A DNA stretch of 64,000 nucleotides from an uncultured Gammaproteobacteria bacterium (GCA_964613815.1 CAZTKG010000003.1:54903-118902); one strand, 5' to 3'. Positions 2,762 through 28,179 are shown, counted from the first letter of the stretch. Numbers and translations are program-made. The notes: generated by a model from the letters alone, not told the origin.

Positions 2762-3791
2762 ATGTTCGTAATTCAGCCTCTGAAGTCCTTTTATTCTTAA
2801 AGATGTGACGCCTTTTCTTTAGCATTTTTGGCAATAATTTGCCAATTTGCAGAAGGCGCCTTCTTGTTTCCGGCTCAAAGATAGCTCCGTACATCATGCG
2901 ACCACCTTGACCAAGAATGATCCATGGAGCATGAATGATTGCGGTTGATAGAGCGAGATTTTTTATGAGCATCAATGCCTGATTGCGTGTTGATAGCGCA
3001 GCGAAGAATGGGCGCTGCGTTCTGCGGTTCTTGAGGCGATCTTTGAGGGACTGTTTTTCTTTCCCGTACATCCCTCGGTAGTGGTACGCGACGGCTTTTG
3101 GAGCGAATCTGGTTTGATGTCCTTTTCTGGCAAGACGCATGGCAAGGTCACAGTCTTCTTTGTAAGTAAAAAACTCTGCATCTAGCCATTCTTTTTGGTA
3201 TCTAATATCTTGCAAAGCCTCTTTTTTGATCAGTGCCATCGCAAGCGAGGCACCGAAAAGTGTTTTTTTGAGATCGTACTGACCCCTATCTACCTCTCCC
3301 GCTCCGCGATCGGTGAAACGCCAACCCTTCCATGGTGTGAGCCCTGTTGAATCAATGATGTCGGATTTTACCGTTGTACGAAGAGATTCGTCTCCAGCGT
3401 TTTCGTAGAAACACCGGAGAAGCTTTGGCTGGATAACGCTTATGCTATTTGATGATTTGATCGCCTTAACCATCTCTTCCACTGCTGTCGGTTGAAGAAT
3501 GAGGTCCGCGTTCAGGAATAGTACCGCCGATTCTTCATCGTCATCCTGAATGCGGCTCATGGTGTGTTCAAGGAGTTGGTTGTGACCACCGGCGAAGCCG
3601 AGGTTTTTTGCGTGTCTTCCAGCGAGAGCTCTTGGGTATTTTTCTCGGATGAATTGCGGGGAACCGTCTGTACTTCCATTGTCAAAAACCCGTACAACGA
3701 GGTTTTGATAGGTTTGCGCCTCAAGGGACTCGAAGAGGTCTTCGAGGTAGTCTTTTTCGTTCCAGGTGAGGATATGGGCATAGACTCTCAT
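2739..3791 (-). CDS. GT2-family glycosyltransferase
   Basis: 350 aa with VRVFDNGSTDGS and ADLIL motifs, a GT-A fold. It overlaps its downstream neighbour by 23 nt. Confidence 0.75.
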   Translation of the reverse strand: MRVYAHILTWNEKDYLEDLFESLEAQTYQNLVVRVFDNGSTDGSPQFIREKYPRALAGRHAKNLGFAGGHNQLLEHTMSRIQDDDEESAVLFLNADLILQPTAVEEMVKAIKSSNSISVIQPKLLRCFYENAGDESLRTTVKSDIIDSTGLTPWKGWRFTDRGAGEVDRGQYDLKKTLFGASLAMALIKKEALQDIRYQKEWLDAEFFTYKEDCDLAMRLARKGHQTRFAPKAVAYHYRGMYGKEKQSLKDRLKNRRTQRPFFAALSTRNQALMLIKNLALSTAIIHAPWIILGQGGRMMYGAIFEPETRRRLLQIGKLLPKMLKKRRHIFKNKRTSEAELRTYVGQKST

Positions 3792-7407: not shown

Positions 7408-7482
7408 TGGAGCCATTGGGCGGATTTGAACCGCCGGCCTATGCTTTACGAAAGCATTGCTCTACCCCTGAGCTACAATGGC
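7408..7482 (-). tRNA. tRNA-Thr (anticodon CGU)
   Basis: Reverse complement GCCATTGTAGCTCAGGGGTAGAGCAATGCTTTCGTAAAGCATAGGCCGGCGGTTCAAATCCGCCCAATGGCTCCA folds as a cloverleaf. Anticodon loop TTCGTAA, with an encoded CCA. Confidence 0.8.
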
Positions 7483-7499
7483 ATCAGACTTGTTAAAAT

Positions 7500-7730
7500 G
7501 CCGTGTCATCGTTCTTTTTCTCCGCTTCTCGACTACGTACCATTAGTACGTCTTACTGCGATGCTCGAAAGAAGAACGATGACACGGCATTTTCCCTGCG
7601 TCTGGGTCTTTGCCAGTGCGATGTCATCATTCTTTTTCTCCGCTTCTCGACTACGTACCATTAGTACGTCTTACTGCGATGCTCGAAAGAAGAACGATGA
7701 CACGGCATTTTCCCTGCGTCTGGGTCTTTG
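7500..7730. repeat. tandem duplication (about 112 + 118 nt) of a long-hairpin element
   Basis: Copy 1 has perfect arms gccgtgtcatcgttcttt / aaagaagaacgatgacacggc around a roughly 50-nt loop that contains an inner acgtac/gtacgt hairpin. Copy 2 is identical except for 3 substitutions in the left arm. Both end in attttccctgcgtctgggtctttg. Confidence 0.6.
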
Positions 7731-15627: not shown

Positions 15628-15687
15628 GGAGGTATTATAGCAGGTTTTTTATGGTTTGATTTTGCTGATAAGCCCCATCTCCCAGGC

Positions 15688-15716
15688 TTGACATCTTGGT
15701 GATTTTCTGCTAGCGT
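15688..15716 (+). promoter_or_regulatory. candidate sigma70-type promoter for 15745..16308
   Basis: TTGACA (15688-15693), a 17-nt spacer, then TAGCGT. The -10 is weak, so this is tentative. Confidence 0.25.
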
Positions 15717-15744
15717 TTGGCTGCACCTTCAAATGGGAGAACCC

Positions 15745-16308
15745 ATGCAGACTCCGTATCAGCATTTCCTTGATAGCCTTTCCATTCTCATGCAGATGCT
15801 GCAGGATGGCAGGCTGGGACTCGACATGCTGGACGCGCTTCTCAACAATCCGCTGCGCGCCTATGGCAGCACCGCCATGTTGAGCCTCGGTGTGATTCCG
15901 ATCGATTTCAGCATCCCGATCACACTCTCTGCAGGCGAGTACACCAACGACCCTGAGCACCCGGTGAACCTGGAGCTGTTTCAGATGGAAGTCGATGCGG
16001 ATACGCCGCGCGGTCTGGAGCATTTCGAGATGCACCTCGTTCGTCTCGATCGCTACGGCGAGCCGACTGTGCAGCTACCTCGGGGCTCGCGTCCGGGATC
16101 GATCTGGCATCTCCTGATGCTGAACTTCACTCGCCCGGAGCTCGTCCGCCACCTCAACATGGTCGCGCTTGCCAAGATGGTCGGGAATGAACTCCCGATG
16201 CTTCACCGGCGAGGTCGCGAGACCTACCTGAGCCACGTCACGATGGCCCGGTTCGACACCAAGACTCTCGTCTACGGTATCTGGGTCGTCCCCGTTTCCG
16301 CTCCCTGA
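15745..16308 (+). CDS. hypothetical protein (higher-GC island)
   Basis: I chose the start at MQTPYQ (GGGAGAA upstream). No recognised motif. Sustained ORF with higher GC. Confidence 0.45.
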   Translation: MQTPYQHFLDSLSILMQMLQDGRLGLDMLDALLNNPLRAYGSTAMLSLGVIPIDFSIPITLSAGEYTNDPEHPVNLELFQMEVDADTPRGLEHFEMHLVRLDRYGEPTVQLPRGSRPGSIWHLLMLNFTRPELVRHLNMVALAKMVGNELPMLHRRGRETYLSHVTMARFDTKTLVYGIWVVPVSAP

Positions 16309-16355
16309 TTTTGAAGGGGCGGTTTTTTTGATCGCAAAAAAAGAGCCGTTATGGC

Positions 16356-17216
16356 TCAGATGACTGCTGACACCTCTTCCTCACCCACGTAGCGATTCAC
16401 GAGGTCGCGTACTGCGAGGAAAACCTCTGAGTTACTTAACCCAGCGCCGTTTTGGAGATCGGTAGAGATCCTAGCGATCACAGGGAGGACGTCCATATCT
16501 GATCGCCCTGTCTCAGCCCTCCTCATCTGCCTGTATCGATGAACCCCCCTGCAAAACGCCCCTTCGTCGTTACTTTTTCTACTGGTCCTTTCTGGCACTA
16601 CGAACAGCCTGGTTCTTCCAGCGGACTTGATCTGCAGAGCGATCTCGTCGTCTCCGTCCCCCCCTAGCATCACTACGTAATCCACCTTGAGATCGCCGTC
16701 GGACTCAGGTAATGGCTCTACCACTCGTAGGCCGTAGCAGTCGAGTGCGAAGATGAGGTGTGCAGAAACGAGCGCGCCACGCATAGAGCGGTGCCAGATC
16801 TTCCGACCTACCCCCTCGCCCCACCTTGACCTCATGAACTCCCCCCTGTCCTCGTCAGAGAGATAGAGCATCGCACGAACGAGTTCTTGCATGCCAAAGA
16901 TCGCGATTCTGAATGATGACCATGGGAATCGCCCCCTCCCCCTCTCTTGAGCGGTCGTCACCAGTATTGTCATGATGCTTCCGCGCAATGCGAATAGCAG
17001 ACCCCCGTGCCCCCTTGAATGATCGTCGGCTGCTGCTACGATGTCTCGCATAGCAGCACTTATCCGATCCCTCCTTCCTGAGACGAACGCTGCCACAACG
17101 TGCTCTTCATCGATTGAATCAAAACACGTCTTCAGGGCGTTCCACAGCACATCACCTCCAATGGTCTGGAATCTCTCCACGACCACTGCATGCCTCTCCT
17201 CTTCCTGTCCCCACAT
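16356..17216 (-). CDS. hypothetical protein (higher-GC island)
   Basis: 286-aa Arg/Asp-rich ORF with no recognised motif. It is convergent with 15745..16308 across an A/T palindrome. Confidence 0.45.
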   Translation of the reverse strand: MWGQEEERHAVVVERFQTIGGDVLWNALKTCFDSIDEEHVVAAFVSGRRDRISAAMRDIVAAADDHSRGHGGLLFALRGSIMTILVTTAQERGRGRFPWSSFRIAIFGMQELVRAMLYLSDEDRGEFMRSRWGEGVGRKIWHRSMRGALVSAHLIFALDCYGLRVVEPLPESDGDLKVDYVVMLGGDGDDEIALQIKSAGRTRLFVVPERTSRKSNDEGAFCRGVHRYRQMRRAETGRSDMDVLPVIARISTDLQNGAGLSNSEVFLAVRDLVNRYVGEEEVSAVI

Positions 17217-17288
17217 ATTCCCTCCATATTGGCTTTCTTGGGGTCGTGAGTTATACCTTAAATGCAGGCACCGGTCAATCCTCCATAC

Positions 17289-17317
17289 AAAAAACAGCGC
17301 CGGAGCGCTGGTTTTTT
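17289..17317 (-). terminator. rho-independent terminator (bidirectional geometry) after the zinc-ribbon mini-gene
   Basis: aaaaaa-CAGCGC-cgga-GCGCTG-gtttttt, a 6-bp GC stem flanked by A and T runs. It starts 5 nt beyond the stop of 17322..17576 (stop codon 17322-17324, flanking A-run ends 17317). Confidence 0.6.
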
Positions 17318-17321
17318 GATC

Positions 17322-17576
17322 TTACATCGCTGGAGCAGCTGTGTCGTCTCCTCCTTCGGCTGGTGCCTCTGGAGCAGCTTCTGCTGGTGCTTCAGCTGGA
17401 GCCTCTTCTGCTGGTGCTTCTGGTGCAGCAGCTTCTTCCGCCGGTGCTTCTGCTGGAGCCTCTGGAGCTGCTTCAGCTGGTGCTTCTGATGATGATCCAC
17501 CAGAACAGTTTGGACACATTCCGTCCGTTAGTTGCTCGTCAGCCAATTCGGCTGAACATCCTGTGCAAACGCCCAT
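17322..17576 (-). CDS. small zinc-ribbon protein with acidic PEAPAEA repeats
   Basis: 84 aa with CTGC...CPNC (two CxxC pairs), then (P/A)EAPAEA repeats encoded by tandem DNA repeats. Confidence 0.5.
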   Translation of the reverse strand: MGVCTGCSAELADEQLTDGMCPNCSGGSSSEAPAEAAPEAPAEAPAEEAAAPEAPAEEAPAEAPAEAAPEAPAEGGDDTAAPAM

Positions 17577-17607
17577 AAAGATGTAAAGTTAATGTAATTA
17601 CAGGGGG

Positions 17608-17636
17608 ATTATAGCTGAATATGTCGATATTTGCAA
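17608..17636 (-). promoter_or_regulatory. near-consensus sigma70-type promoter for the zinc-ribbon mini-gene
   Basis: On the minus strand: TTGCAA (17631-17636), a 17-nt spacer, then TATAAT (17608-17613). The ATG follows 31 nt downstream with no obvious SD. Confidence 0.45.
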
Positions 17637-17743
17637 ACCTCGATGGGAATTTCGCTAAGGTTATTTATTCGCGCGTTAAGATCGCTATTTCACGCCTTGA
17701 TTTTCTCCGCAGTTTGTGATATAAATTTCGCACCTCACATTGA

Positions 17744-17819
17744 GCGCCGGTAGCTCAGTTGGTAGAGCAAGGGCCTTTTAAGCCCGTGGTCGTGGGTTCG
17801 AGTCCCACCCGGCGTACCA
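17744..17819 (+). tRNA. tRNA-Lys (anticodon UUU)
   Basis: GCGCCGGTAGCTCAGTTGGTAGAGCAAGGGCCTTTTAAGCCCGTGGTCGTGGGTTCGAGTCCCACCCGGCGTACCA. Anticodon loop CTTTTAA, T-loop GGTTCGAGTCC, encoded CCA. Confidence 0.85.
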
Positions 17820-17825
17820 AGAAGT

Positions 17826-17851
17826 CATCGCGAAAGCGGTGGTTTTTTTTT
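17826..17851 (+). terminator. rho-independent terminator after tRNA-Lys
   Basis: CATCGCG-aaa-GCGGTGG stem-loop followed by T9. Confidence 0.6.
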
Positions 17852-17927
17852 GATGCGCAGCTTTAGGCACATTGACACGCCCCTTTCTTTATGACACTCT
17901 ACGCCTCCACCTTCACAAGGACTCGAC

Positions 17928-18872
17928 ATGAAACAAAAGAATAGTCATGTTGGCATTCTGGGCGATTTCTTTAATAGCCCCTTTATCACTCGAATAGGAC
18001 TCTGCCTTACTTCGAGGGAAGCTGGTCTTTGGTCGCAGATCTTGAGCTTGGAAGACGACCAAGACTTTCAGACGAACTCAGTGCGGCTCCGTGCATTCAT
18101 TGGCCGACTTGTTGATGCTCGCGTTGTTCAGATGATCGAGGAGGGTCGATATCGAATTACCGTGCCACTTGATCGGATCGTTTGCGTGGAGATTTATCGG
18201 CGCGCGAGAGTTAAGGTGCTTCCTGCCGAAGTTGAGACGATCACCTCTTTGCAGCGAACTGTCGTGAACATCCTTACGCTTCATGGGCGTACGTCTGTCA
18301 ATTCTGTACAGATGATGGCTGGGTCAAGGTGTCCGATTGAACGACTCGGAATCCTGATTGATGGACCCGATTCAGAGCCACTGCTTTGCCCGATTGGCTT
18401 TGCCATGGCCGAGCTTGTGCCTATGTCGGCGAGCGCCCTTGGCGATAAGCAGCGTAAGCTCCCGTTTCCACTTCCAGACTTCTACCTCGCAGATCCTGGC
18501 CCGAATATTCCGCGGAAATGGATGGTTGGAAGCGCTCTGATGGCACCACTTGCGGAGACGTGGGAAGTGCTCATCGCGATTGTTCGCGGCGTGGTTTCGC
18601 CGATGAGTAATCGACTGCTCGCGAAGCGGAAGAGACGACCTCTAGCACCCCCCTCGCCTGCTCCGCCAGCTGTCATCGCCCCTCCGGAGCCAACTCCCGT
18701 AGCACCGATACCGACACCCCCTCCGGATCCTGATCCTCTTCCGGCACTTCCTCTAGGGCTCTTGCCTGCCCTTTCTGCGCTTCTGTCTCGCGCTCATCCA
18801 ACCTCCGCGCGGAATATTCTGCGGCAACTCGGCGAGCTCAGCGGATCCGGAGATACATCGCCTCCACCTTAG
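17928..18872 (+). CDS. hypothetical protein with a Pro-rich C-terminal tail (higher-GC island)
   Basis: 314 aa. The N-terminal region may be winged-helix-like. The C-terminus is PPSPAPPAVIAPPEPTPVAPIPTPPPDPDP. No motif recognised. Confidence 0.45.
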   Translation: MKQKNSHVGILGDFFNSPFITRIGLCLTSREAGLWSQILSLEDDQDFQTNSVRLRAFIGRLVDARVVQMIEEGRYRITVPLDRIVCVEIYRRARVKVLPAEVETITSLQRTVVNILTLHGRTSVNSVQMMAGSRCPIERLGILIDGPDSEPLLCPIGFAMAELVPMSASALGDKQRKLPFPLPDFYLADPGPNIPRKWMVGSALMAPLAETWEVLIAIVRGVVSPMSNRLLAKRKRRPLAPPSPAPPAVIAPPEPTPVAPIPTPPPDPDPLPALPLGLLPALSALLSRAHPTSARNILRQLGELSGSGDTSPPP

Positions 18873-18916
18873 CGTCTTGCGCTGAGGTTTTTTTCATCTG
18901 TGAATAACCTTTACGC

Positions 18917-18940
18917 TCCCATCTCGACCCTGTGGAGATA
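18917..18940. repeat. half copy of the 27-bp-arm palindromic element
   Basis: tcccatctcgaccctgtggagata matches the left arm of the elements at 23722 and 24786 with 2 mismatches. No right arm. Confidence 0.5.
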
Positions 18941-18956
18941 GGAAGGGACTGAAGAA

Positions 18957-18991
18957 CTTTTTCATAAAAATCACACCCGTTTGCGGGTGTG
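18957..18991 (-). terminator. rho-independent terminator of 18992..20056
   Basis: On the minus strand, directly after the TAG stop: CACACCCG-caaa-CGGGTGTG followed by ATTTTTAT. Confidence 0.6.
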
Positions 18992-20056
18992 CTATGACGA
19001 TGTCAGCTTGCCTAACTCGCTCATGACGCGAGCCTGCATGGCCCTTGGAAGACTTTCGAGATGCGCCTTGTGGATGAGCATAGCCACGATCATGTCGACG
19101 CCGGTGAGGCGTTCGTCGACGCGAGCCATGACGCGCTGCTCTAGAGCGTCCATGCCGGTGAACTCGTCGATCGATGCGAGGACCGTGGCTTGGATGCGGG
19201 CTTCGGCGCCGTCGAACTCCTCCAGCCGTGCGCGTACCTCGTCGAGGCCACTCAGACGCTCTTCGATGAGAGCAACGAGTCGGTCCTCGATACCTTCGAT
19301 ACCAGCAAGCCCTGCAGTGATTTTTCGCGTGGACTCTCTTCGGAGGGATAGCCGAATTCGCTCCTCTGCACCAGCGAGCTGCGCAGCTCGCTGTTCGAGC
19401 GCCTGCTCCAGCTCTTCGATGCGCCGGATTCGATCGTCCATCTCGGTCATGACCGCGTGTTCGACGGCGCGTGCGATCTGACTCTGAGATTCGTCGACTT
19501 GCGTGAGCGCGCTGTCAAGCCTTTCTATGACGCGTGCCTCGACCACTCGAGCAATATGTACCTCGAATGCAGTCATCGGCGACTCGGGTACGGCTTTGCG
19601 TCCTGACTCAGCAGCGTCCACCTGAGGCGACTGAGGATCTCCGCCTCCACCGCCTTCGCTGCCCTCTCCTTGATGATCATCGGCCTCGGGAGCGCTCCTC
19701 CTCGCCCCCTCGAGCGCCTCCTGCCAGGGCAGAATGTCTACAACGACGTCGGTCCACTCGTAGAACTTTGGCCTCTTGCCAGCCCCTTCAGGCATGACAA
19801 CACCATCCGGCCTCGGGACCTCCCTGACCACGCCGTGTGTCACCGCTGTTCGCAATGCGCTCCCGGCGCTTGCGCGACTCTTGTATACCCCCTCGAAGTC
19901 CTCTTCGAGCATCAGCCAGACGCCCTGACCTTGAGTCCTCCAGAAGATGCGCCAGAATACTCCGTTGAACATTGTTCGCCGCATTGCAGGGACTGGACTT
20001 CTTGCAAGGACCACATCTGGACGAGTTCCGATGCCTTGTCTCTGACCTTCTGTCAT
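18992..20056 (-). CDS. hypothetical protein with C-terminal coiled-coil repeats (higher-GC island)
   Basis: 354 aa. A Gly/Glu-rich linker is followed by repeated R(I/V)xxLExRLxxxD heptad-like units. Confidence 0.45.
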   Translation of the reverse strand: MTEGQRQGIGTRPDVVLARSPVPAMRRTMFNGVFWRIFWRTQGQGVWLMLEEDFEGVYKSRASAGSALRTAVTHGVVREVPRPDGVVMPEGAGKRPKFYEWTDVVVDILPWQEALEGARRSAPEADDHQGEGSEGGGGGDPQSPQVDAAESGRKAVPESPMTAFEVHIARVVEARVIERLDSALTQVDESQSQIARAVEHAVMTEMDDRIRRIEELEQALEQRAAQLAGAEERIRLSLRRESTRKITAGLAGIEGIEDRLVALIEERLSGLDEVRARLEEFDGAEARIQATVLASIDEFTGMDALEQRVMARVDERLTGVDMIVAMLIHKAHLESLPRAMQARVMSELGKLTSS

Positions 20057-20168
20057 GATTTCTCCTTTTGATTATTGTTCTGTCCGATTTACCGGACAAG
20101 AGGAGAACTTTTTCATTTTTTGGCTCATTTGTCAAGCATTTTGGGTGCTCATGCTATGATCTAGCGGT

Positions 20169-21373
20169 ATGCAAAAAGCTCTTGAATCGAATATTTGGAA
20201 GTACGCGGTTTATCTTGTGACGAATAAGAAGGTGTATGTCGCCATCTTGAGTGCGTATTATTTGACGATTCCGAATGTGACGGCGCAGAGCATTGGGCTG
20301 ATTACGCTTGTTTCGATGCTTGGTGGGTTCTTTTTTGAGATTCCTAGTGGGTATGTTTCGGATAAGATTGGGCATAAGCAGGCGCTTATTTTGGCAAAGG
20401 TGCTTGGACTGATCTCTACTGTTCTCTATCTTTTTGCGGATAATCTTCTTCTTTTGATCTTTGGCGCTGTCATGCTCAGTATTGGCGTCGCGTTTCATAG
20501 CGGGACCGGGAGTGCGTTTTTGCATGAGACGCTTTCTGGACTGAAGCGGGCGAAAGATTATGCGCGGGTTTCTGGGAAGCTTAGTTCGATTGGGTTCGCG
20601 GTGCCGATTGTGCTTTCTACGACGATTCCGTTTTTGGTGAGTATTGATTATAGTTTGCCGTTTTTGATTGCGCTTGTGCTGGATACTGCAGGTGTGATTG
20701 TAGCGATGTCGCTCGTCACCCCGAAAGCAAGCCAGCATGAGATTGAGGAGATTCGGAAGACGAACTTTTGGCAGGTGATGAAGTCTGGTCGGGAGATGAA
20801 GGTGTTTAGCTTCTTGATATTCTCTGGAGTTTTGGCGGCATTCTTGATGTCTGCTGGACGCTTTCGGGCGCCTTACCAGGTATTTTTGGAAGTTCCGGTG
20901 ATTTGGTATGGGGTCTTTCATGGGACTGGGCGGATTTTGCGTCTATTTTGCTCGCGTATACTGGGAAGATTCGAGAGCGGATTTCGCTTTTTGGGCTTTA
21001 TCGGTTTCAGTTATTGATCTTTGGCTTGTTTTTAATTGCACTTGGGGTTTCGACGTCGGCGCCGGTAATTGTAGGGTCCCTGCTTTTGATGAATGGATTC
21101 CAGTGGGGGCTGAGTAAGGTTGATCAGAGTTTTATGATGGACCTGCTTGGGCAGAGTAAGTTTAAGGCGACGCTTCTTTCTGTTCGGGGGCAGATTTGGC
21201 TGGTGACCGGGGCGACTCTTGGGTTTTTGCTTGGGACGGTGATTGATTGGGTTGGGTATCGGGAAGGGTTTTTGTGGTATGCGGTGGCGTTTTTGATTCT
21301 TCTTGTGCCGATGTATGTATATATTCATGTTCGGCATCGGGATGTGAATGAGAAGCTTTTGTCTGTGAAATAA
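20169..21373 (+). pseudogene. MFS transporter, frameshifted (two ORFs 20169..21017 and 20903..21373 in different frames)
   Basis: Both pieces are polytopic and MFS-like. The frame switches near 20890-20950. This could be a pseudogene or a sequencing error. Confidence 0.55.
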
Positions 21374-21405
21374 AACTCCCGCCACGTGTGTGACGGGTTT
21401 CCCCT

Positions 21406-22868
21406 TCAGTGCGCTTTGGCGCCTGATTTGGGGAAGGCGTTGTAGATCCTGATGGACAGGACGGCGCCGAGGATGACGAATGGGAGGATGACGAGGGGCC
21501 AGGCCATCCAGGTGCTGGGGTCTTTGGCTGCGTCTCCGGTCGTCAGGAAGTAGCCCATGGTGATGGAGTGCAGGCCGGTGCCGATGTAGACGCATCCGTC
21601 GACGATGCCGACGGCCTTTCCGGTGTTCTTGACGCCAGAGAAGTCGGCTGCTGCGGTGCCAGAGAGGATGCCGTGCACGCCGAGGACGCAGGCTGCGACC
21701 ACGAGGACTCCTGCGCCGGTGATCCAGGAACCCATGCCAGGGCCGTTCGCTGTGAGCGACGCGACGATGGCGACGATGGCGACGGTCATGGCTCCGTAGG
21801 AGATCATGACCATCGGGCCGCGCTTGGAGCCGAAGAACTTGTCGGAGATCCAGCCAGTCATGAAGCCGCCGGTGACGCCACAGATGAGGAGACAGAAGCC
21901 CCAGTTGCTTGTGACGTGGAAGTCCTTGTAGAAGCCGACCGAGTGGGCGAACTGCGGGTAGTATTGGAAGACGCCGTTTCGGATGATGCCGGAGCAGAAT
22001 TCGATGGCGCAGATGATCAGGAGGACGCGATGCTTCTTGCCGGTCGCGATGGTCTTGATCATCTCCCAAAGGCCGAGCGTTCGGTCTGCGACCTGTTGGT
22101 CACCGGTCTCGAAGTCCTCGAACTTACCCGTGTCGCTTGGCTTGTTGCGGAGGAAGATCAGCATGGCCAGGAACCATGGGATCGCGAAGAGTGCCGGGAA
22201 GAGGAACATCCACCAGTTCTGGTCTACGCCGGTGTTTGCGGCGCCGAGCAGGTTGTAGAAGATGGACTCGGTGACATTGAGGTCCGCGAGCACCACGTCC
22301 GCCTTGCGCGTGACTGTGCGGATGGCGTATCCCCAGTCGAAGGCGAAGTAGATGCCGGTGCTGATCATGATGCCGAAGATGGTACCGAACGTGCCGCGTT
22401 CGCGGACGTGGAACCAGGGCATCTTGGTGGTGACGATCGACATGGCTCCCAGGCTCTGGAAGAACATGTTGACTGCGTAGAGCACGGTGAGCGCATGGGT
22501 GAGCTGGATGTCCCAGCCCTTCATCATGACGCCGTAGATGACGGCAGCCATGGCGAGATTGGCTGTTACAGCCCCAGCGACGCCGACGAGCATGCCGCGA
22601 CGGCCGCCGTAGCGATCGACGAGCGGACCCCGTTCACCATGAAGCCGATGAAGTAGAAGATCGCGCCAATGCCGAAGATGAAGCCGAACTCGTTGATGTC
22701 CATGAGCTCGTCGCCGAGGGCGCTTTTTGCCGGGTTGAGGCAGTAGCGCATGAACATCAGGCTGGCGTAGCCGAAGCCGAGCGGGAACCAGTTGAGAAAG
22801 CGTCGGAAACGGTATTCCGGCGGGTGGATTGGGACGTTGTTTTTGTCGAATTTGAGTGTACGTGCCAT
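21406..22868 (-). pseudogene. GlpT/UhpT-family organophosphate:phosphate antiporter (MFS), frameshifted
   Basis: The N-terminal piece (22566..22868) aligns by eye to the E. coli GlpT N-terminus (YRRLR.. vs YRFRRF..; GYAAYY vs GYASLMF). The 395-aa piece continues in another frame. The frameshift is near 22590-22610. About 62% GC. GGAGG sits 6 nt upstream of the ATG. Confidence 0.55.
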
Positions 22869-22945
22869 CGATTACCTCCGTCGAAGACGGGGGTAGTTAA
22901 CCTTTTATTGAGGTTATTGTCAATGAATTTATGCCAGTATTTACC

Positions 22946-22974
22946 TTGACAAATTGAGAATTATTGGCTAAATT
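22946..22974 (+). promoter_or_regulatory. candidate sigma70-type promoter for 23018..23668
   Basis: TTGACA (22946-22951), a 17-nt spacer, then TAAATT (22969-22974), in an AT-rich intergenic stretch. Confidence 0.35.
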
Positions 22975-23017
22975 TTTGAGTCTTCGCTATGGTTAGGTAG
23001 TGAGACAGGGAGAGAAT

Positions 23018-23668
23018 ATGCACCTTTTTTGGCTGATTTTTGTCGCGATCGCCTCGGCGGGGACCGAGTGGGCGGAGCGTTTGGATAAGGTCCAAGGCGA
23101 CTGTCGATCTGACCAACTGGTCTCGTGGGCGTCTGCGTACCACTCTGACTGTGATGCTGCGGTGGCCGTCGATGGCGTGCCGGGCATCATGTTCGATGTG
23201 GTGAGTGCGTACTGGGGCGATGGCCAGTTGAATCTCAGTGTCGTGGATGACAAGGTTGTCTACTTCGGCCTGATCGGCGAGGAGAAGGCGGCGGCGTACG
23301 GGATCGATCAGGGCGTGTACGTCGTGTGGGGCGATCGGATGACGCGGACGCCGAACGGCGTTGCCTCGCATCCGCATGTGCTTCTGAAAGCCGACGGGAC
23401 CGAGAAGCGTTTGAACTTTGCTTTTTTCGCCGACATCGACGGGCAACTTGCCTTTGAGGCGTATGGCGAAGAGGGTCAGGGTCGGACGCTCGTGATCGGG
23501 GAACGTACGGCGAACAACACGCGGAAGGTTCGGCATCTGAAGATGGTAAGTCTGTGCAAGGACGATGACATCATGACGCGCGAATGCAAGCGTAAGTCCG
23601 TGCATGTGAGCACGGTCTTCGATGATGAGTGGACTGAGACCGCGTGGGTCAGCGCCAAGGCTCGGTGA
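23018..23668 (+). CDS. hypothetical secreted protein
   Basis: I chose the start at MHLFWLIFVAIASAGTEWA, which is signal-peptide-like with GGGAGAGAA upstream. No recognised domain. Confidence 0.45.
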   Translation: MHLFWLIFVAIASAGTEWAERLDKVQGDCRSDQLVSWASAYHSDCDAAVAVDGVPGIMFDVVSAYWGDGQLNLSVVDDKVVYFGLIGEEKAAAYGIDQGVYVVWGDRMTRTPNGVASHPHVLLKADGTEKRLNFAFFADIDGQLAFEAYGEEGQGRTLVIGERTANNTRKVRHLKMVSLCKDDDIMTRECKRKSVHVSTVFDDEWTETAWVSAKAR

Positions 23669-23721
23669 GTCTCGTAGCACCTGAATGGGTGCTCTTTTTG
23701 TTTTTTCGCCTTTCCGATGTC

Positions 23722-23795
23722 TCCCATCTCGACCTTGCGGAGAGATCTCTTCGAACACATTAGCGGCAAGATCTCTCCGCAAGGTCGAGATGGGA
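23722..23795. repeat. palindromic intergenic element (27-bp perfect inverted arms, 20-nt spacer)
   Basis: tcccatctcgaccttgcggagagatct (23722-23748) and its exact reverse complement (23769-23795). Confidence 0.7.
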
Positions 23796-23857
23796 AATAA
23801 TGATTATGATCCATGAAAAAAATCCCTCCACTTAGGGACGGATGCGGTACTGGGTGC

Positions 23858-24697
23858 TCAGACGAGCTTGAACCAGCGTTTGGAGACGAGTTCGTAGTTG
23901 GCGACGCCGAGGAGGGCTCCGATGGTGGCGGAGGCGATGAAGACGGCGAAGACTTCGGGGCGGGTCATGGTGGGGTCGTAGAGGACGAGGTAGCCGAAGA
24001 CGGTGGCGAGGCCGGTGTCGAAGGCGCAGATGAGGCGTTCGTGGCAGTGGATTTTGCGGAAGAACTTTCCGATGCCGATGATGATGAGTGCCAGGATTGC
24101 GCAGACGATGGCTACAGGGAATATGCATCCTGTTACTGCCCAGATTATTGCGTTCTCGTAATCGAGATCTGCATACTCGTACTCATGCTTTTCCCGATAG
24201 TCTGACGACCTCCAAGATCTCTTTAAGATGAACTCTGCTCCGAATTCGGTGAGCAGCTTGAATACTGCTGTAGCCAGAGTTGAGATGAGAAGGATCAGCA
24301 CTGGAATAGCAATGTTTCCCATCAGAATACTTCCCGACCCACCAATGATCGCTTCGAATGCGATCTCTTCGAAGGTCATCCCGGTCTCAGCGTGCCGGAA
24401 CAGGATCCAGGCAAGCGGACTGAGTGCGATTGCCGTGAAGAAGAAGAGATGGAATGGGCGCGGCTGCTCTGCCCACTTGGCAACACCTCTTCTGATTTCG
24501 ATCAGGCCCTGACAGCTCTGCTGTGCCACTTCCACTGCAGCCTTGTGGGTCTCCCTGAAGCGATATGACAGGAAAGCGGTGCCCATGCCGACGATGAGGC
24601 CGAGCCACCAGATGCTCGCTGGGAGGGTGATCGCTGTGCCGATACCGGTGGTGACACCGAGGATGATCGCGAGGGCGATTTCGTGTCTGGTTTTCAT
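23858..24697 (-). CDS. hypothetical polytopic membrane protein
   Basis: 279 aa with about 7 predicted TMs. It is flanked on both sides by the palindromic elements. Confidence 0.5.
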   Translation of the reverse strand: MKTRHEIALAIILGVTTGIGTAITLPASIWWLGLIVGMGTAFLSYRFRETHKAAVEVAQQSCQGLIEIRRGVAKWAEQPRPFHLFFFTAIALSPLAWILFRHAETGMTFEEIAFEAIIGGSGSILMGNIAIPVLILLISTLATAVFKLLTEFGAEFILKRSWRSSDYREKHEYEYADLDYENAIIWAVTGCIFPVAIVCAILALIIIGIGKFFRKIHCHERLICAFDTGLATVFGYLVLYDPTMTRPEVFAVFIASATIGALLGVANYELVSKRWFKLV

Positions 24698-24785
24698 GAA
24701 AAGAGCTCCTGTGCGGACGGGATGTCCGGTGAAATTACCGTAACTTAGCTTTTTATTGGCGTCAATGACCGGATCATTCTCTTTT

Positions 24786-24860
24786 TCCCATCTCGACCTT
24801 GTGGAGAGATCTTGCAGCTATTCGCGCTCGAAAGGATCTCTCCGCAAGGTCGAGATGGGA
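24786..24860. repeat. palindromic intergenic element (second full copy)
   Basis: tcccatctcgaccttgtggagagatct (24786-24812) and gatctctccgcaaggtcgagatggga (24835-24860), with a 22-nt spacer and one arm mismatch. Confidence 0.7.
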
Positions 24861-24914
24861 AACGAAGGAGAGGTAGGTTGATGATATCGAGCGATGAAAA
24901 AAGACCCGGATGGG

Positions 24915-26033
24915 TCATTTTTTCTTTTCGGCTTTTTCTCCTTGGACGATTTTGATGAACTCCCCTGCCCCGTCTGTTTTGAGGGCTAGGTTTATTTTTA
25001 CTGCTAGCTCACCTCGTTTTGACGCGCTTCTTGCTAGCTTTGTGATGGCCTGTTTGATGATTTGCGGATTTGTTTTGTAGAGGACCAGGGCGCCGCCTTT
25101 CTTTTCGATGATTTTGGCGTTTGCGACTTGGTGGGAGTTTGGGATTGGGATGAGGATGGTTGGTTTTGCGAGGGCGGCCATTTCCATGATGGTGCCCATT
25201 CCTGCTCTGCCGACGACGATGTCAGCGTCTCTTAGGGCGACGCCCATTTGTTCGATGAGGGTTTCGTGGACGCGGTAGGTGTCGCCGATTTTCTTTAGGG
25301 ATGGGATCATCTTACCTTTGCCGGTGATGTGCGTGATATGCACCTCCTTGGCAAGATCTGGGCCGATGATTTCCATGGTTTTGTTGATGGATGCCGCACC
25401 GGTGCCGCCGCCGAAGATCAATACTTTTGGTGGACCTTCTGGTCTTTTGATCGGCTTAGGGACATCTAATAGCGAAGGACGAACGATGCCTCCGATTTGT
25501 GTTGTTTTTTTCTTTGGGAAGTGCTTTTTTGATGTTTTCCAGGTCGTGGTGATTTGCCTTGCGAATGGGGCCATGAGCTTATTTGCGAGACCTGGGATGA
25601 CATCTAGTTGGTGGATGAAGACGGGGATTCTGAGGATCCAGGCCATCCAGGCGATTGGGACGGAGACGTAGGCACCTACGGAGAGGACGGCTCTTGGGCG
25701 CTCTTTTAATAGAATTGATAGGGATTGGGCGCAGCTGATCATCAAAAGCGGACCTATGAAGAGCCAGCCGAGTTTTTTTCCTCGTGAGAGTTTTGGGGCG
25801 ATGATGGTCTGGAATGGAATTCCGGCTTTTTTGACGAAGGGTTTTTCTGGGCCTTTTTGGGTGCCGATCCAGGTGAATTTGATGTCTGGGTCTTGCGCGC
25901 GCCATTCTTCTGCCACGGCTAAGAGTGGCGTGACTGGGCCTAGGGTGCCACCTCCGGTAAGCATGACTGGGCCGGTTTTGATATCTTCCTCCTCTTCTCG
26001 GGAGATAATGTCGCTAATTTTTTTGTGCTGCAT
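24915..26033 (-). CDS. murG: undecaprenyldiphospho-muramoylpentapeptide beta-N-acetylglucosaminyltransferase MurG
   Basis: N-terminal GGGTLGPVTP glycine loop and C-terminal GRAGMGTIMEMAALAKPTILIP. GT28 architecture. Confidence 0.85.
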   Translation of the reverse strand: MQHKKISDIISREEEEDIKTGPVMLTGGGTLGPVTPLLAVAEEWRAQDPDIKFTWIGTQKGPEKPFVKKAGIPFQTIIAPKLSRGKKLGWLFIGPLLMISCAQSLSILLKERPRAVLSVGAYVSVPIAWMAWILRIPVFIHQLDVIPGLANKLMAPFARQITTTWKTSKKHFPKKKTTQIGGIVRPSLLDVPKPIKRPEGPPKVLIFGGGTGAASINKTMEIIGPDLAKEVHITHITGKGKMIPSLKKIGDTYRVHETLIEQMGVALRDADIVVGRAGMGTIMEMAALAKPTILIPIPNSHQVANAKIIEKKGGALVLYKTNPQIIKQAITKLARSASKRGELAVKINLALKTDGAGEFIKIVQGEKAEKKK

Positions 26034-27126
26034 AGCGGGAAACGTTTAGGACTAGGCCCATTGCTGCTAATGATATCGCATATGATGTTCCTCCGTAACT
26101 CAGGAATGGGAGCGGGACCCCGGTGATGGGCATAATACCGATCATGGATCCGATGTTGACGAAGGCTTGGACGCCGAACCAGGCCATGATACCGACGACG
26201 AGGTATTTTCCGAAATCGTCCTTGGCGCCCTCGGCGATGGAGAGGCCTCGGAGGATGAAGATGAGGAGGGCTGCGAGGAATAATGAGGTGAAGAGGAACC
26301 CCAGCTCCTCTCCGATGACGGCAAATATGGAATCTCCTACGACCTCTGGGAGGTATTGGAACTTTTGGAGAGAGTGGCCGTAGCCTCGGCCGAAGAAGCC
26401 TCCGGATCCTATGGCGAGTAGTGATTGGTTGATTTGGTAACCGATTCCTTGAGGGTCGAGTTCTGGCTGGAGAAAGGTCATGAAACGGGCGGCGCGGTAG
26501 GGGGAGGATTTGATGGCGAGCATGAGCGCGCCTGCTCCGACGCCGGCGAGGCCGAGGAGGTAGACCATTGGGCCTCCAGCGATGAAGTAGAGGATGAAGG
26601 CCATGGCGGTGATGATGGAAAGAGTTCCGAGGTCTGGCTGGAGGATCATGAGGAGCGAGATGACGCCGAGGATGAGGACGAATGGGACGAGGCCGCTCTT
26701 GAGGTCTTTGAGGTCGTCACGCCTAGTTGCTAGCCATGCCGCGAGGTACATGAGGAACGTGAGTTTTACGACCTCGGATGGCTGGAATGATATTGGGCCC
26801 AGTATGACCCAACTATTTGCGAATGTGCCGAAGTCCGTTCCAAGACCTGGGATGAAGACGAGGATGAGAAGGATGATGGAGAGGATCATGGCCGGGAATG
26901 CGAACTTTTTCCACTTTGTGTATGGGACGGTGAAGGTGATGAAGAATGCGGCGAGACCTGGAAGGAGACCGGCTAAAACCTGATGTTTGAGAAAGTAGTA
27001 ACTGTCGCCGAAGCGTTCGTAGGCGACTGGGCCGGAAGCGGAGGCGAGGACGATGAGCCCAAACAAAACAATTCCTGCAAGGAGGAAGAGGAATGTTTTG
27101 TCGATTTTTCCCCCGTCTTTTCCCAT
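26014..27126 (-). CDS. ftsW: SEDS-family peptidoglycan glycosyltransferase FtsW/RodA
   Basis: 370 aa with 10 TMs and the GSGGFFGRGYGHS... motif region. It lies between mraY and murG. Confidence 0.85.
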   Translation of the reverse strand: MGKDGGKIDKTFLFLLAGIVLFGLIVLASASGPVAYERFGDSYYFLKHQVLAGLLPGLAAFFITFTVPYTKWKKFAFPAMILSIILLILVFIPGLGTDFGTFANSWVILGPISFQPSEVVKLTFLMYLAAWLATRRDDLKDLKSGLVPFVLILGVISLLMILQPDLGTLSIITAMAFILYFIAGGPMVYLLGLAGVGAGALMLAIKSSPYRAARFMTFLQPELDPQGIGYQINQSLLAIGSGGFFGRGYGHSLQKFQYLPEVVGDSIFAVIGEELGFLFTSLFLAALLIFILRGLSIAEGAKDDFGKYLVVGIMAWFGVQAFVNIGSMIGIMPITGVPLPFLSYGGTSYAISLAAMGLVLNVSRYAAQKN

Positions 27127-27129
27127 AGA

Positions 27130-28179
27130 CTAGCCTGTCAGGCCGGCGTCTATTAGGTAGAGGATGAGGCCGAGCGCTGCGGCGATCCAGGAGATGACCC
27201 AGAATCTCATGACGACCTTTGGTTCTGGCCAGCCCTTTGCCTCGAAATGGTGATGAATTGGGGCGACGAGGAAGACTTTTCGTTTCCAGATTTTTCGAGC
27301 GAGGATTTGGATGATGGTCGTGATGGCCTCTATGACGAATACGAGGCCAATGATTGGGAGAAGGAGGGCTGAGTTTGTGAGCATGGCGATAATGCCGAGG
27401 GTGACTCCGAGAGACATGGCACCGGTGTCGCCCATGAAGAATCTTGCTGGGTAGATGTTGAACCAGAGGAATGCGAGAAGGGCTCCCATGATGACGCCGC
27501 AGAGAACGGCGAGGTCGTAGCGCTCTTGGAGGATGCAGATCACGGCGTAGGCGCCGAATGAGGATACGAGCGTACCACCAGCGAGACCGTCTAGGCCGTC
27601 TGTTTGGTTTACGGAGAAGGATGTTCCGACGATGACGGTGATGAAGAGTGGGATGTACCACAGACCGATGTTGTAGGTGCCGATGAATGGAATGTGGAGG
27701 AGGTCCCAGTCTAGTTTGAAGAAAAACCAGAGAGCGCAGGCTACGGCCACTATCAGATAAAGAGCTAGGCGATGACGGATGTCGATACCTCCGCCGTTTT
27801 TGCCGATGCGACGGACGTTGAAGAAGTCGTCAGCGAGGCCGATAATGCCGGCGATGACGAGAGCGCCTAGAGGGAGGAGGACCTGTTCGCGTGAAAGGAA
27901 GTGGAATTGTTCGAAAAATGGGGCGACGTCTTTTAGGAGAGCGAAAATTAGGGCAATGGCTAGCGTTGTTCCCCAGATGAGAACACCACCCATAGTTGGG
28001 GTTCCCGATTTTTTCTCGTGCATTTTGTGGAAAATCGGGGCCTGCTTTTTGGATCTGAGGGATTTGCCGAGCTTGTATTTGTAGAGGATTTTGGTGAGCA
28101 GTGGAGTCCAGAGGATCGCGACCACGAATGAAAGCGTGGTGAGTGCGAGGATTTTGAATTCAATGAAGGGGTCGAGCAT
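27130..28179 (-). CDS. mraY: phospho-N-acetylmuramoyl-pentapeptide transferase MraY
   Basis: GLADDFFN, NQTDGLDGLAGG and PIHHHFE motifs. Confidence 0.9.
   Translation of the reverse strand: MLDPFIEFKILALTTLSFVVAILWTPLLTKILYKYKLGKSLRSKKQAPIFHKMHEKKSGTPTMGGVLIWGTTLAIALIFALLKDVAPFFEQFHFLSREQVLLPLGALVIAGIIGLADDFFNVRRIGKNGGGIDIRHRLALYLIVAVACALWFFFKLDWDLLHIPFIGTYNIGLWYIPLFITVIVGTSFSVNQTDGLDGLAGGTLVSSFGAYAVICILQERYDLAVLCGVIMGALLAFLWFNIYPARFFMGDTGAMSLGVTLGIIAMLTNSALLLPIIGLVFVIEAITTIIQILARKIWKRKVFLVAPIHHHFEAKGWPEPKVVMRFWVISWIAAALGLILYLIDAGLTG

Follow-up and report, generated by a model that had tools for sequence, protein, structure and literature searches.

Nested-palindrome intergenic repeats, probably of a REP/MITE-like kind, beside murG in an uncultured bacterium and in Anaerococcus

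Palindromes of the murG locus

The DNA studied here, referred to as the window, is a stretch of 64,000 nucleotides from an uncultured bacterium, corresponding to positions 54903-118902 of a 181.9-kb scaffold (GCA_964613815.1, CAZTKG010000003.1); 8 kb on each side of it were also examined. Downstream of mraY, ftsW and murG lies a gene encoding a 279-amino-acid multi-pass membrane protein without a Pfam match (here denoted the 7-TM gene, for seven transmembrane segments), and on either side of it we noticed a long palindrome. A first-pass annotation of the sequence had taken the two palindromes for full copies of a dispersed repeat that bracket the 7-TM gene, accompanied by a half copy near position 18917. 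Pattern search, arm complementarity, shuffled controls and folding confirmed the full copies, and the two, themselves inverted doublets of a module of about 27 nucleotides (nt), do enclose exactly this one gene (Table 1).

The pattern TCCCATCTCGACCTTGYGGAGAGATCT, with up to three mismatches allowed, occurs at four sites in the window, against 0.00 expected from 100 shuffles. The arms of doublet 1, each of 27 nt, are 100% complementary and are separated by a spacer of 20 nt (about 18-20 nt between modules). In doublet 2 the spacer is 21 nt (about 19-21 nt between modules) and the arms differ at one Y position (T versus C, giving a G.T wobble) and by one end mismatch; a repeat search delimited these arms at 28 nt with 96% complementarity. 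The element ends read TCCCATC...GATGGGA. The doublets are mutually inverted, homology between their spacers being seen only in reverse complement, and their flanks are non-homologous. Folding showed that both full copies are strongly stable, with RNA folds of -54 to -60 kcal/mol on either strand (z = -9 to -12) and a DNA fold of -34 kcal/mol.

A covariance model of the module (R1), run with filters off over the 64-kb window, detected, apart from the half copy at 11.9 bits (E = 1.8), just the four modules that make up the doublets (43.0 and 39.6 bits in doublet 1, 40.8 and 35.6 bits in doublet 2). The half copy does match with two mismatches over 22 nt (18917-18938, 91%), as had been annotated, and its identity falls to 78% over the whole 27-mer, the GA and the 3' flank of the module being lost. 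Because it scores only 11.9 bits, we judge it from its sequence to be a decayed remnant.

All copies had been described as lying 3' of genes. This holds for the two sites between convergent genes, and doublet 2 is indeed 3' of murG; the latter site is, in addition, 5' of the 7-TM gene. A simple scan for a hairpin followed by a T-tract showed that every gene adjoining a window copy has such a canonical terminator between its stop codon and the element, and that two convergent intrinsic terminators enclose the decayed module. No T-run was found beside the doublets, on either side or either strand. Thus, of the features of an intrinsic terminator the palindromes have the hairpin and lack the U-tract, and separate terminators lie nearer to the stop codons. 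The window palindromes occupy the gaps between terminated transcription units, which argues here against the earlier proposal that they serve as bidirectional terminators or mRNA-stabilising hairpins. Given this position beyond the terminators of the genes themselves, the copies have the look of parked repeat DNA.

A third doublet was found on the same scaffold, about 30 kb from the window copies. Its flanks are unrelated to theirs, its modules are arranged tail to tail and the inserts differ between its arms (cacttcgg and ccttgtg), which brings the tally for this genome to three doublets and one remnant in about 80 kb. The start assigned to the adjoining holB-like gene (19408 of locus L166) overlaps the doublet; the call is probably too long, the real start being an ATG at about 19535. 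A dispersed family would be contradicted by a lack of further copies or by copies that belong to a larger segmental duplication. With a third doublet in unrelated flanks neither is the case, and the annotation of a dispersed REP/MITE-like family (repetitive extragenic palindromes, miniature inverted-repeat transposable elements) gains further from the multiple copies in Anaerococcus and the occurrences in other lineages described below.

Table 1. Positions of the palindromes, neighbouring genes, terminators and related loci (window numbering unless a locus is named)
Feature	Position	Strand	Remark
mraY	27130-28179	-	
ftsW	26014-27126	-	
murG	24915-26033	-	
7-TM gene	23858-24697	-	
Gene before doublet 1	23000-23668	+	upstream of doublet 1
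Doublet 1	23722-23795		arms 23722-23748 and 23769-23795
Doublet 1, module	23723-23749	+	CCCATCTCGA-ccttgcg-GAGAGATCTC
Doublet 1, inverted module	23768-23794	-	
Doublet 2	24786-24860		arms 24786-24812 and 24834-24860
Doublet 2, module	24787-24813	+	insert ccttgtg
Doublet 2, inverted module	24833-24859	-	insert ccttgcg
Four 27-mer sites	23722-23748, 24786-24812	+	pattern search
	23769-23795, 24834-24860	-	pattern search
Decayed single module (half copy)	18917-18943	+	CCCATCTCGA-ccctgtg-GAGATAGGA
Terminator of gene 23000-23668	23676-23708 (scan 23676-23693)	+	before doublet 1
Terminator of 7-TM gene	23815-23839 (scan 23822-23839)	-	GTCCCTAAGTGGAGGGAT then TTTTTTT; between gene and doublet 1
Terminator of murG	24897-24916 (scan 24903-24916)	-	GACCCATCCGGGTC then TTTTTT; between murG stop and doublet 2
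Convergent terminators	18866-18888	+	enclose decayed module
	18972-18991	-	enclose decayed module
Variable island	15650-24900		between GT4/cation-ATPase and murG, about 9.3 kb
Third doublet	L166 19427-19504		same scaffold, 6.7 kb before window start; upstream of holB, divergent region
170-nt unit, further loci	L078, L081, L091, L113, L118, L138, L142, L149, L161		Anaerococcus subfamily
About 80-nt loop insertion	L013, L018, L004, L072, L106		inside module apical loops

The hairpin module and its distribution

The module is organised as 5'-CCC-ATCTC-GA-N-loop-N'-GA-GAGAT-CTC-3', that is, CCCATCTCGA, a variable stretch of 7-26 nt and GAGAGATCTC. It comprises a 5-bp stem, a conserved tandem GA/GA, one further Watson-Crick pair and a variable apex able to hold extra hairpins, and its 5' flank CCC carries C at 88-99% over the three positions. 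A doublet consists of two such modules, inverted, around a spacer; among the matches listed, 134 distinct doublets have the form CCCATCTCGA-ins1-GAGAGATCTC-(2-122 nt)-GAGATCTCTC-ins2-TCGAGATGGG. Since both arms in the window carry the same insert type, ccttgYg, a perfect hairpin of 27-30 bp also forms there.

Variants of the two sides of the stem occur in pairs: CCCATcTCGA with GAGAgATCTC, CCCATtTCGA with GAGAaATCTC, CCCAcCTCGA with GAGAGgTCTC, and CCCATCcCGA with GAGgGATCTC. The arms of a single doublet often differ in variant. In an alignment of 66 distinct modules (A1; structure ...(((((..(.......)..)))))...), 98.5% of cells are paired and four of the six pairs show changes on both sides, and none of 500 shuffles reached the covariation observed; the pair flanking the GA/GA is G:C in 43 modules, C:G in 17 and A:U in 2. 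These data show that selection or copying keeps the module stem through compensatory changes. The same comparison was made for 41 distinct doublets. Covariation of the intramodule helices was 0.173 versus 0.102 in shuffled alignments (0/500 as high), and that of the long inter-arm helix 0.073 versus 0.077 (364/500 as high), with 12-13 unpaired cells at variable columns. Because the intramodule helices covary and the inter-arm helix does not, the conserved or selected unit is the small module hairpin, not the long inter-arm hairpin. Many apical loops read C(GNA)G, classically the loop of very stable mini-hairpins in DNA, and this is a hint that the module exists as single-stranded DNA; GTAG occurs in some apical loops only.

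To learn about the distribution of the module, we scanned genomes, one per species, with the 21-mer CCCATCTCGACCYTGYGGAGA. The scan returned 37 loci, 35 of which are in Anaerococcus (A. vaginalis, A. rubeinfantis, A. jeddahensis, A. hydrogenalis, A. senegalensis, A. ihuae and one uncultured species). Two matches in Aquificaceae were set aside, as they lie inside a coding region and about one chance match is expected. In at least six Anaerococcus species the entire 27-mer is identical (27/27, loop included) and stands in AT-rich intergenic DNA. The 35 Anaerococcus loci, of 8 kb each, hold 124 modules, which alternate in orientation at spacings of about 90-160 nt. These intergenic repeats are so dense that proC, proA/proB, gdh, tyrS, a Na/Pi transporter gene and a hydrolase gene come to lie between neighbouring modules.

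A scan of metagenomes for the module gave at least 120 loci, mostly AT-rich. Among the matches listed, genuine elements were also found in contigs of GC 0.39-0.55, for instance in the gap between rpsJ and rplC, after rplT, between scpA and scpB and after rplL (L088, L132, L108 and L089). The elements of L088 (3436-3530), L108 (6764-6860) and L132 (1426-1494) are each a single asymmetric doublet within a conserved operon of a mid-GC uncultured bacterium, with the next start codon 7-10 nt beyond the element. Those matches examined in contigs above 55% GC resemble chance matches in protein-coding sequence and were rejected, the sole exception among the high-GC matches examined being a real doublet at GC 0.55 (L076). 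Scanning the metagenomes with the C-variant 25-mer gave zero matches. Over all contexts, 77 modules are in convergent, 88 in tandem and 14 in divergent intergenic regions, and 2 of 181 lie inside open reading frames (ORFs); convergent gaps are thus enriched for modules and divergent gaps depleted. Judged by sequence, the family is common to Anaerococcus and to other uncultured bacteria and spans phyla.

Searches of existing resources did not reveal a known counterpart. At the gathering threshold Rfam gave no match in the window or in the Anaerococcus loci; in E-value mode nothing specific appeared in 10 environmental loci, and at E values up to 10 the element matched only generic miRNA-precursor hairpin models, far below their cut-offs. 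Literature searches on the module sequence, on Anaerococcus repeats and on REPIN/RAYT systems (REP doublets forming hairpins, and REP-associated tyrosine transposases) in Firmicutes turned up nothing relevant. BLAST of the element against plasmid and phage collections returned chance-level matches only. A scan of viral contigs found two AT-rich prophage-like contigs with one module each, plus one chance match, and gives no sign of a phage vehicle. Two Logan contigs from other runs (L040, 5428 bp, and L041, 1093 bp), both built from short reads, end inside doublets. The palindromes thus interrupt assembly, and where assemblies are fragmented additional copies could escape notice.

Mobility and the preferred reading

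In one Anaerococcus subfamily a doublet with a 2-nt spacer forms the core of a MITE-like unit of about 170 nt. This unit has imperfect terminal inverted repeats of its own, 20-26 nt long (CAGAGCGTAGACAAAGTCAG ... AGTTTGTCAACAGTCTG); its ends are formed by this other repeat (CAGAGCGTAGACAAAG...), and the module doublet is internal. A 172-nt insertion of this kind is present in L031 (3228-3687) and cleanly missing at the orthologous intergenic region of L030 (3053-3340). At about 12 copies of the unit, the same terminator-like hairpin of 15-23 nt, specific to the locus and wholly duplicated, stands on both sides, which is an unusually long, structure-defined target duplication. Together these data demonstrate that at least one Anaerococcus subfamily is mobile and inserts at terminator hairpins. 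Insertion at terminator hairpins without primary-sequence specificity has been described for IS1272/TnSha1 of the IS1182 family, which deletes part of the target hairpin and leaves no duplication (PMC4923244).

Two further observations concern mobile DNA around the modules. A second element of about 80 nt, TAAAAC...GGCA(C/T)A(A/T)TTATCT, was found inside module apical loops between gactac and gc; the loop would thus be, in its own right, a specific target for insertion. In a groundwater metagenome contig (L174, 1808-2538) a homologue of the 7-TM gene is followed by BacA and by a gene for a 215-amino-acid Y1_Tnp (RAYT-like) protein. The palindrome AATCGGAAGACTTAGTCTTCCGATT, whose sequence is unrelated to the module, stands on either side of this Y1 gene, as is classic for REP-RAYT systems, and the inserted segment lies between direct repeats of about 45 nt (1745-1797, 3074-3117).

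We consider it fairly probable (about 0.6) that the palindromes are non-coding, dispersed nested-palindrome repeats of the REP, REPIN, BIME (bacterial interspersed mosaic element) or MITE kind. The family appears to be undescribed so far, a nested-palindrome intergenic repeat of the REP, BIME, NIME (Neisseria intergenic mosaic element) or MITE kind. As the most likely mechanism, a non-autonomous element bearing the hairpin would be mobilised in trans and inserted at terminators or close to them. The module would be recognised as a folded single strand, most likely of DNA, by an enzyme acting in trans, the candidates being an HUH transposase similar to RAYT/IS200 and an IS1182-type DDE transposase that targets hairpins. 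Copies may gather beside terminators either as the hairpins are the target or as such sites are harmless, and the window copies may do little beyond providing inverted repeats able to promote rearrangement of the island in which they lie.

A number of results weigh against this interpretation. No transposase, integrase or Y1 gene appears in the Pfam tables of the window and its 8-kb flanks, and a search of about 1.3 Mb of further loci recovered none either. At the window copies a target-site duplication is not visible, nor is an empty site available for comparison, the nearest MurG being 52% identical and the DNA of other samples 99.96-100% identical. At one orthologous locus of six Anaerococcus species the module is 100% identical, with 67% identity in the 60 nt upstream and 79% in the 88 nt downstream. 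Asymmetric doublets follow the direction of transcription in 7/7 mid-GC contigs, and in the AT-rich loci there is an orientation bias of about 61:25, a ratio whose counts are not independent. Orthologous invariance and orientation with transcription are at least as well explained by a selected function as by purely selfish DNA, and perhaps better; together with the bias towards convergent gaps they leave room for a role at the RNA level or in connection with replication. Gene conversion among copies could also explain the conservation of the module. REP families, moreover, are usually lineage-specific, so that one module across phyla is atypical. Finally, by nearest-neighbour rules a lone module is thermodynamically weak, and for this reason a protein partner is likely.

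Searches for the enzyme gave no candidate gene in cis. Clustering of 1426 flanking ORFs yielded no recurrent mobility gene. A Y1/IS200-type search of the loci by tblastn and phmmer, with transposase sequences of this type and the RAYT-like protein of L174 as queries, had no matches. As for a parent insertion sequence, no transposase-like family recurs beside the modules and the plasmid and phage collections gave no match above chance level.

Alternative readings and related systems

That the module has been selected for a function as RNA or DNA is a serious alternative. In one reading, which we rate as rather unlikely, the 27-nt module would be a functional nucleic-acid motif not recognised before and conserved across phyla, with occurrences in Bacillota (Anaerococcus), in a Patescibacteria-like lineage and in further uncultured bacteria, and it would be the recognition hairpin of a widely distributed protein. 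The partner could be a single-stranded-DNA transposase or recombinase of a new kind, or else a factor that binds or processes RNA. The module would then be maintained by selection at orthologous loci and follow the direction of transcription, and would not be a lineage-specific selfish REP.

An RNA reading, which appears unlikely on balance, holds that the module is a selected cis-acting RNA, a hairpin of 3' untranslated regions or inter-cistronic gaps bound by a conserved RNA-binding protein or RNase. It would act as a stabiliser, a processing site or an attenuator, and its multiplicity would reflect recruitment at many operons, not transposition. This fits the covariation, which keeps a small hairpin together with its conserved unpaired GA/GA and flanks, the invariance of the module at the orthologous site in six species against flanks of 67-79%, and the enrichment of modules at gene 3' ends. 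It also fits the seven asymmetric doublets oriented with transcription, in or near operons such as rpsJ/rplC, rplT/x and scpA/scpB; in four of these seven mid-GC contigs a start codon follows 7-10 nt past the element end. However, intrinsic terminators separate all window copies from the genes, no promoter-like site is seen at the copies, and doublets hold the module in both orientations with no wobble asymmetry marking a preferred strand. The clean insertion polymorphism with target duplication and the arrays and nested insertions in Anaerococcus also speak for mobile DNA over RNA, as do the C(GNA)G loops, which form stable mini-hairpins in DNA.

Quite unlikely, in our view, is that a host protein binds the modules as DNA sites which are not mobile themselves and which serve the nucleoid or supercoiling, as BIMEs do with IHF and gyrase, or recombination, as does dRS3 in the NIMEs of Neisseria. 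The Anaerococcus arrays, in which modules alternate with repeated AT-rich segments of 90-160 nt, have a NIME- or BIME-like layout, sequence conservation is extreme, and module loops are a specific insertion site of another small element. On the other hand, the compensatory changes, which differ between the two arms within a doublet, point to recognition of a folded strand and not of a duplex site, and the distance between half-sites varies from 11 to more than 30 nt.

That the 7-TM gene was delivered by a small composite or cassette-like mobile unit ending in the inverted doublets, as had also been proposed, is very unlikely. The doublets do bracket exactly one gene, which lies in a variable island near a tRNA-Lys gene and has remote homologues only. 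In Anaerococcus, however, the same modules bracket ordinary housekeeping genes; moreover, flanking sequence is not duplicated around the unit, no transposase is found in the window or its 8-kb flanks, and the gene's own terminator lies inside the bracket. No modules were found beside 7-TM homologues in the three other contigs checked. A word-based search had found no close homologue of the 7-TM protein, and an exhaustive HMMER search gave 239 remote homologues, similar in length and 25-35% identical; the protein therefore belongs to an uncharacterised family of membrane proteins and is no orphan.

The least probable reading takes the long hairpins for bidirectional intrinsic terminators or mRNA-protecting 3' hairpins of the flanking genes: the hairpins are very stable on both strands, the Anaerococcus family favours gene 3' ends and many of its modules precede T-rich DNA, but the neighbouring genes' own terminators and the missing T-tracts described above, the position of doublet 2 upstream of the 7-TM gene and that of the third doublet in the divergent promoter region upstream of holB all stand against it.

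Among known systems, the family resembles in layout the REP/BIME and REPIN-RAYT systems of Enterobacteria, Pseudomonas and E. coli, which are likewise short imperfect palindromes, intergenic and near gene 3' ends. It shares with REP and REPIN sequences the inverted doublets, the clusters of alternating orientation, the singlets as decay products and the conservation of a hairpin, not of primary sequence. Unlike in REP-RAYT systems, no RAYT or Y1 gene was found near any copy in the window, its 8-kb flanks or the loci examined; the 5' GTAG/GTGG foot of REPs is absent, the module having CCC there. Further differences are the occurrence of one module in several phyla, the low copy number in the window genome, and the conserved tandem GA/GA with an apex of variable length.

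The dRS3 unit of the Neisseria NIMEs is ATTCCC-N8-GGGAAT, with a centre fixed at 8 bp and a link to phage or IS110-type integration. NIME arrays appear to resemble the present family in their short palindromic units with a variable centre, which alternate with repeat segments of 50-150 bp in intergenic arrays and are targeted by other mobile DNA, whereas the sequence is different and the dRS3 centre is of fixed length. MITEs such as Correia, BOX and RUP are comparable in being non-coding, 75-170 nt long and modular with inverted ends. The window unit, about 75-80 nt with inverted modules, has the size and terminal inverted repeats of a MITE, and the 170-nt Anaerococcus subfamily adds presence/absence polymorphism and target duplication; unlike in typical MITEs, the true ends of that subfamily are another inverted repeat (CAGAGCGTAGACAAAG...) and no parent insertion sequence was found. 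IS1272/TnSha1 (PMC4923244) shares insertion at terminator hairpins, matching the terminator-proximal position of the family, but the Anaerococcus MITE duplicates the whole hairpin and no IS1182-type gene was found here.

Other repeat types were considered and set aside. Integron attC sites and cassettes differ in their ends (RYYYAAC...GTTRRRY versus TCCCATC...GATGGGA here), the copies are inverted and the window with its 8-kb flanks has no integrase. In a CRISPR array direct repeats would be separated by spacers of similar length; here the modules are inverted and spacers range from 2 to 122 nt. The defining features of dif/Xer sites, ribozymes and k-turns are absent from the sequence.

Genomic setting and significance

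All three window copies lie in an island that also contains tRNA-Lys (17744-17819), two major facilitator superfamily (MFS) genes and several genes without Pfam matches. Its GC content is locally 0.57-0.58, versus about 0.49 elsewhere in the window. In the two nearest relatives with context, murG is followed by 1-3 small genes and then by genes for a GT4 glycosyltransferase and/or the cation ATPase.

The best matches of the window MurG are proteins of metagenome-assembled genomes at 45-52% identity, one of them labelled Patescibacteria. Many proteins of the window and its flanks have no Pfam match, and domains such as DUF4012 and DUF5667 are present; the lineage is probably deep-branching and of Patescibacteria type.

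Two other repeats were noticed in the window. Beside tRNA-Thr (7408-7482, minus strand) a unit of 114 nt is repeated in tandem at 7495-7730, with 118-nt spacing and 97% identity, each unit being a long hairpin with 25-nt arms (AAAATGCCGTGTCATCGTTCTTTTT / AAGAAGAACGATGACACGGCATTTT); the module model gave no match there, and this is a different repeat. At 17331-17491, 12/24-nt periodic GC-rich repeats resembling GCTGGTGCTTCTGG overlap ORFs on both strands and are probably a low-complexity coding repeat.

For annotation, the lesson of this locus is that strong palindromes beside genes should not be called terminators by default. In the window genome the repeat family marks a variable island within an otherwise conserved cell-wall gene cluster. 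More broadly, one hairpin module is common to a human-associated genus of Firmicutes and to deep-branching uncultured bacteria with small, gene-dense genomes, and this sharing across phyla, together with the compensatory changes, points to a conserved partner protein. Anaerococcus, which is cultivable and carries many copies, offers an accessible system for finding that protein.

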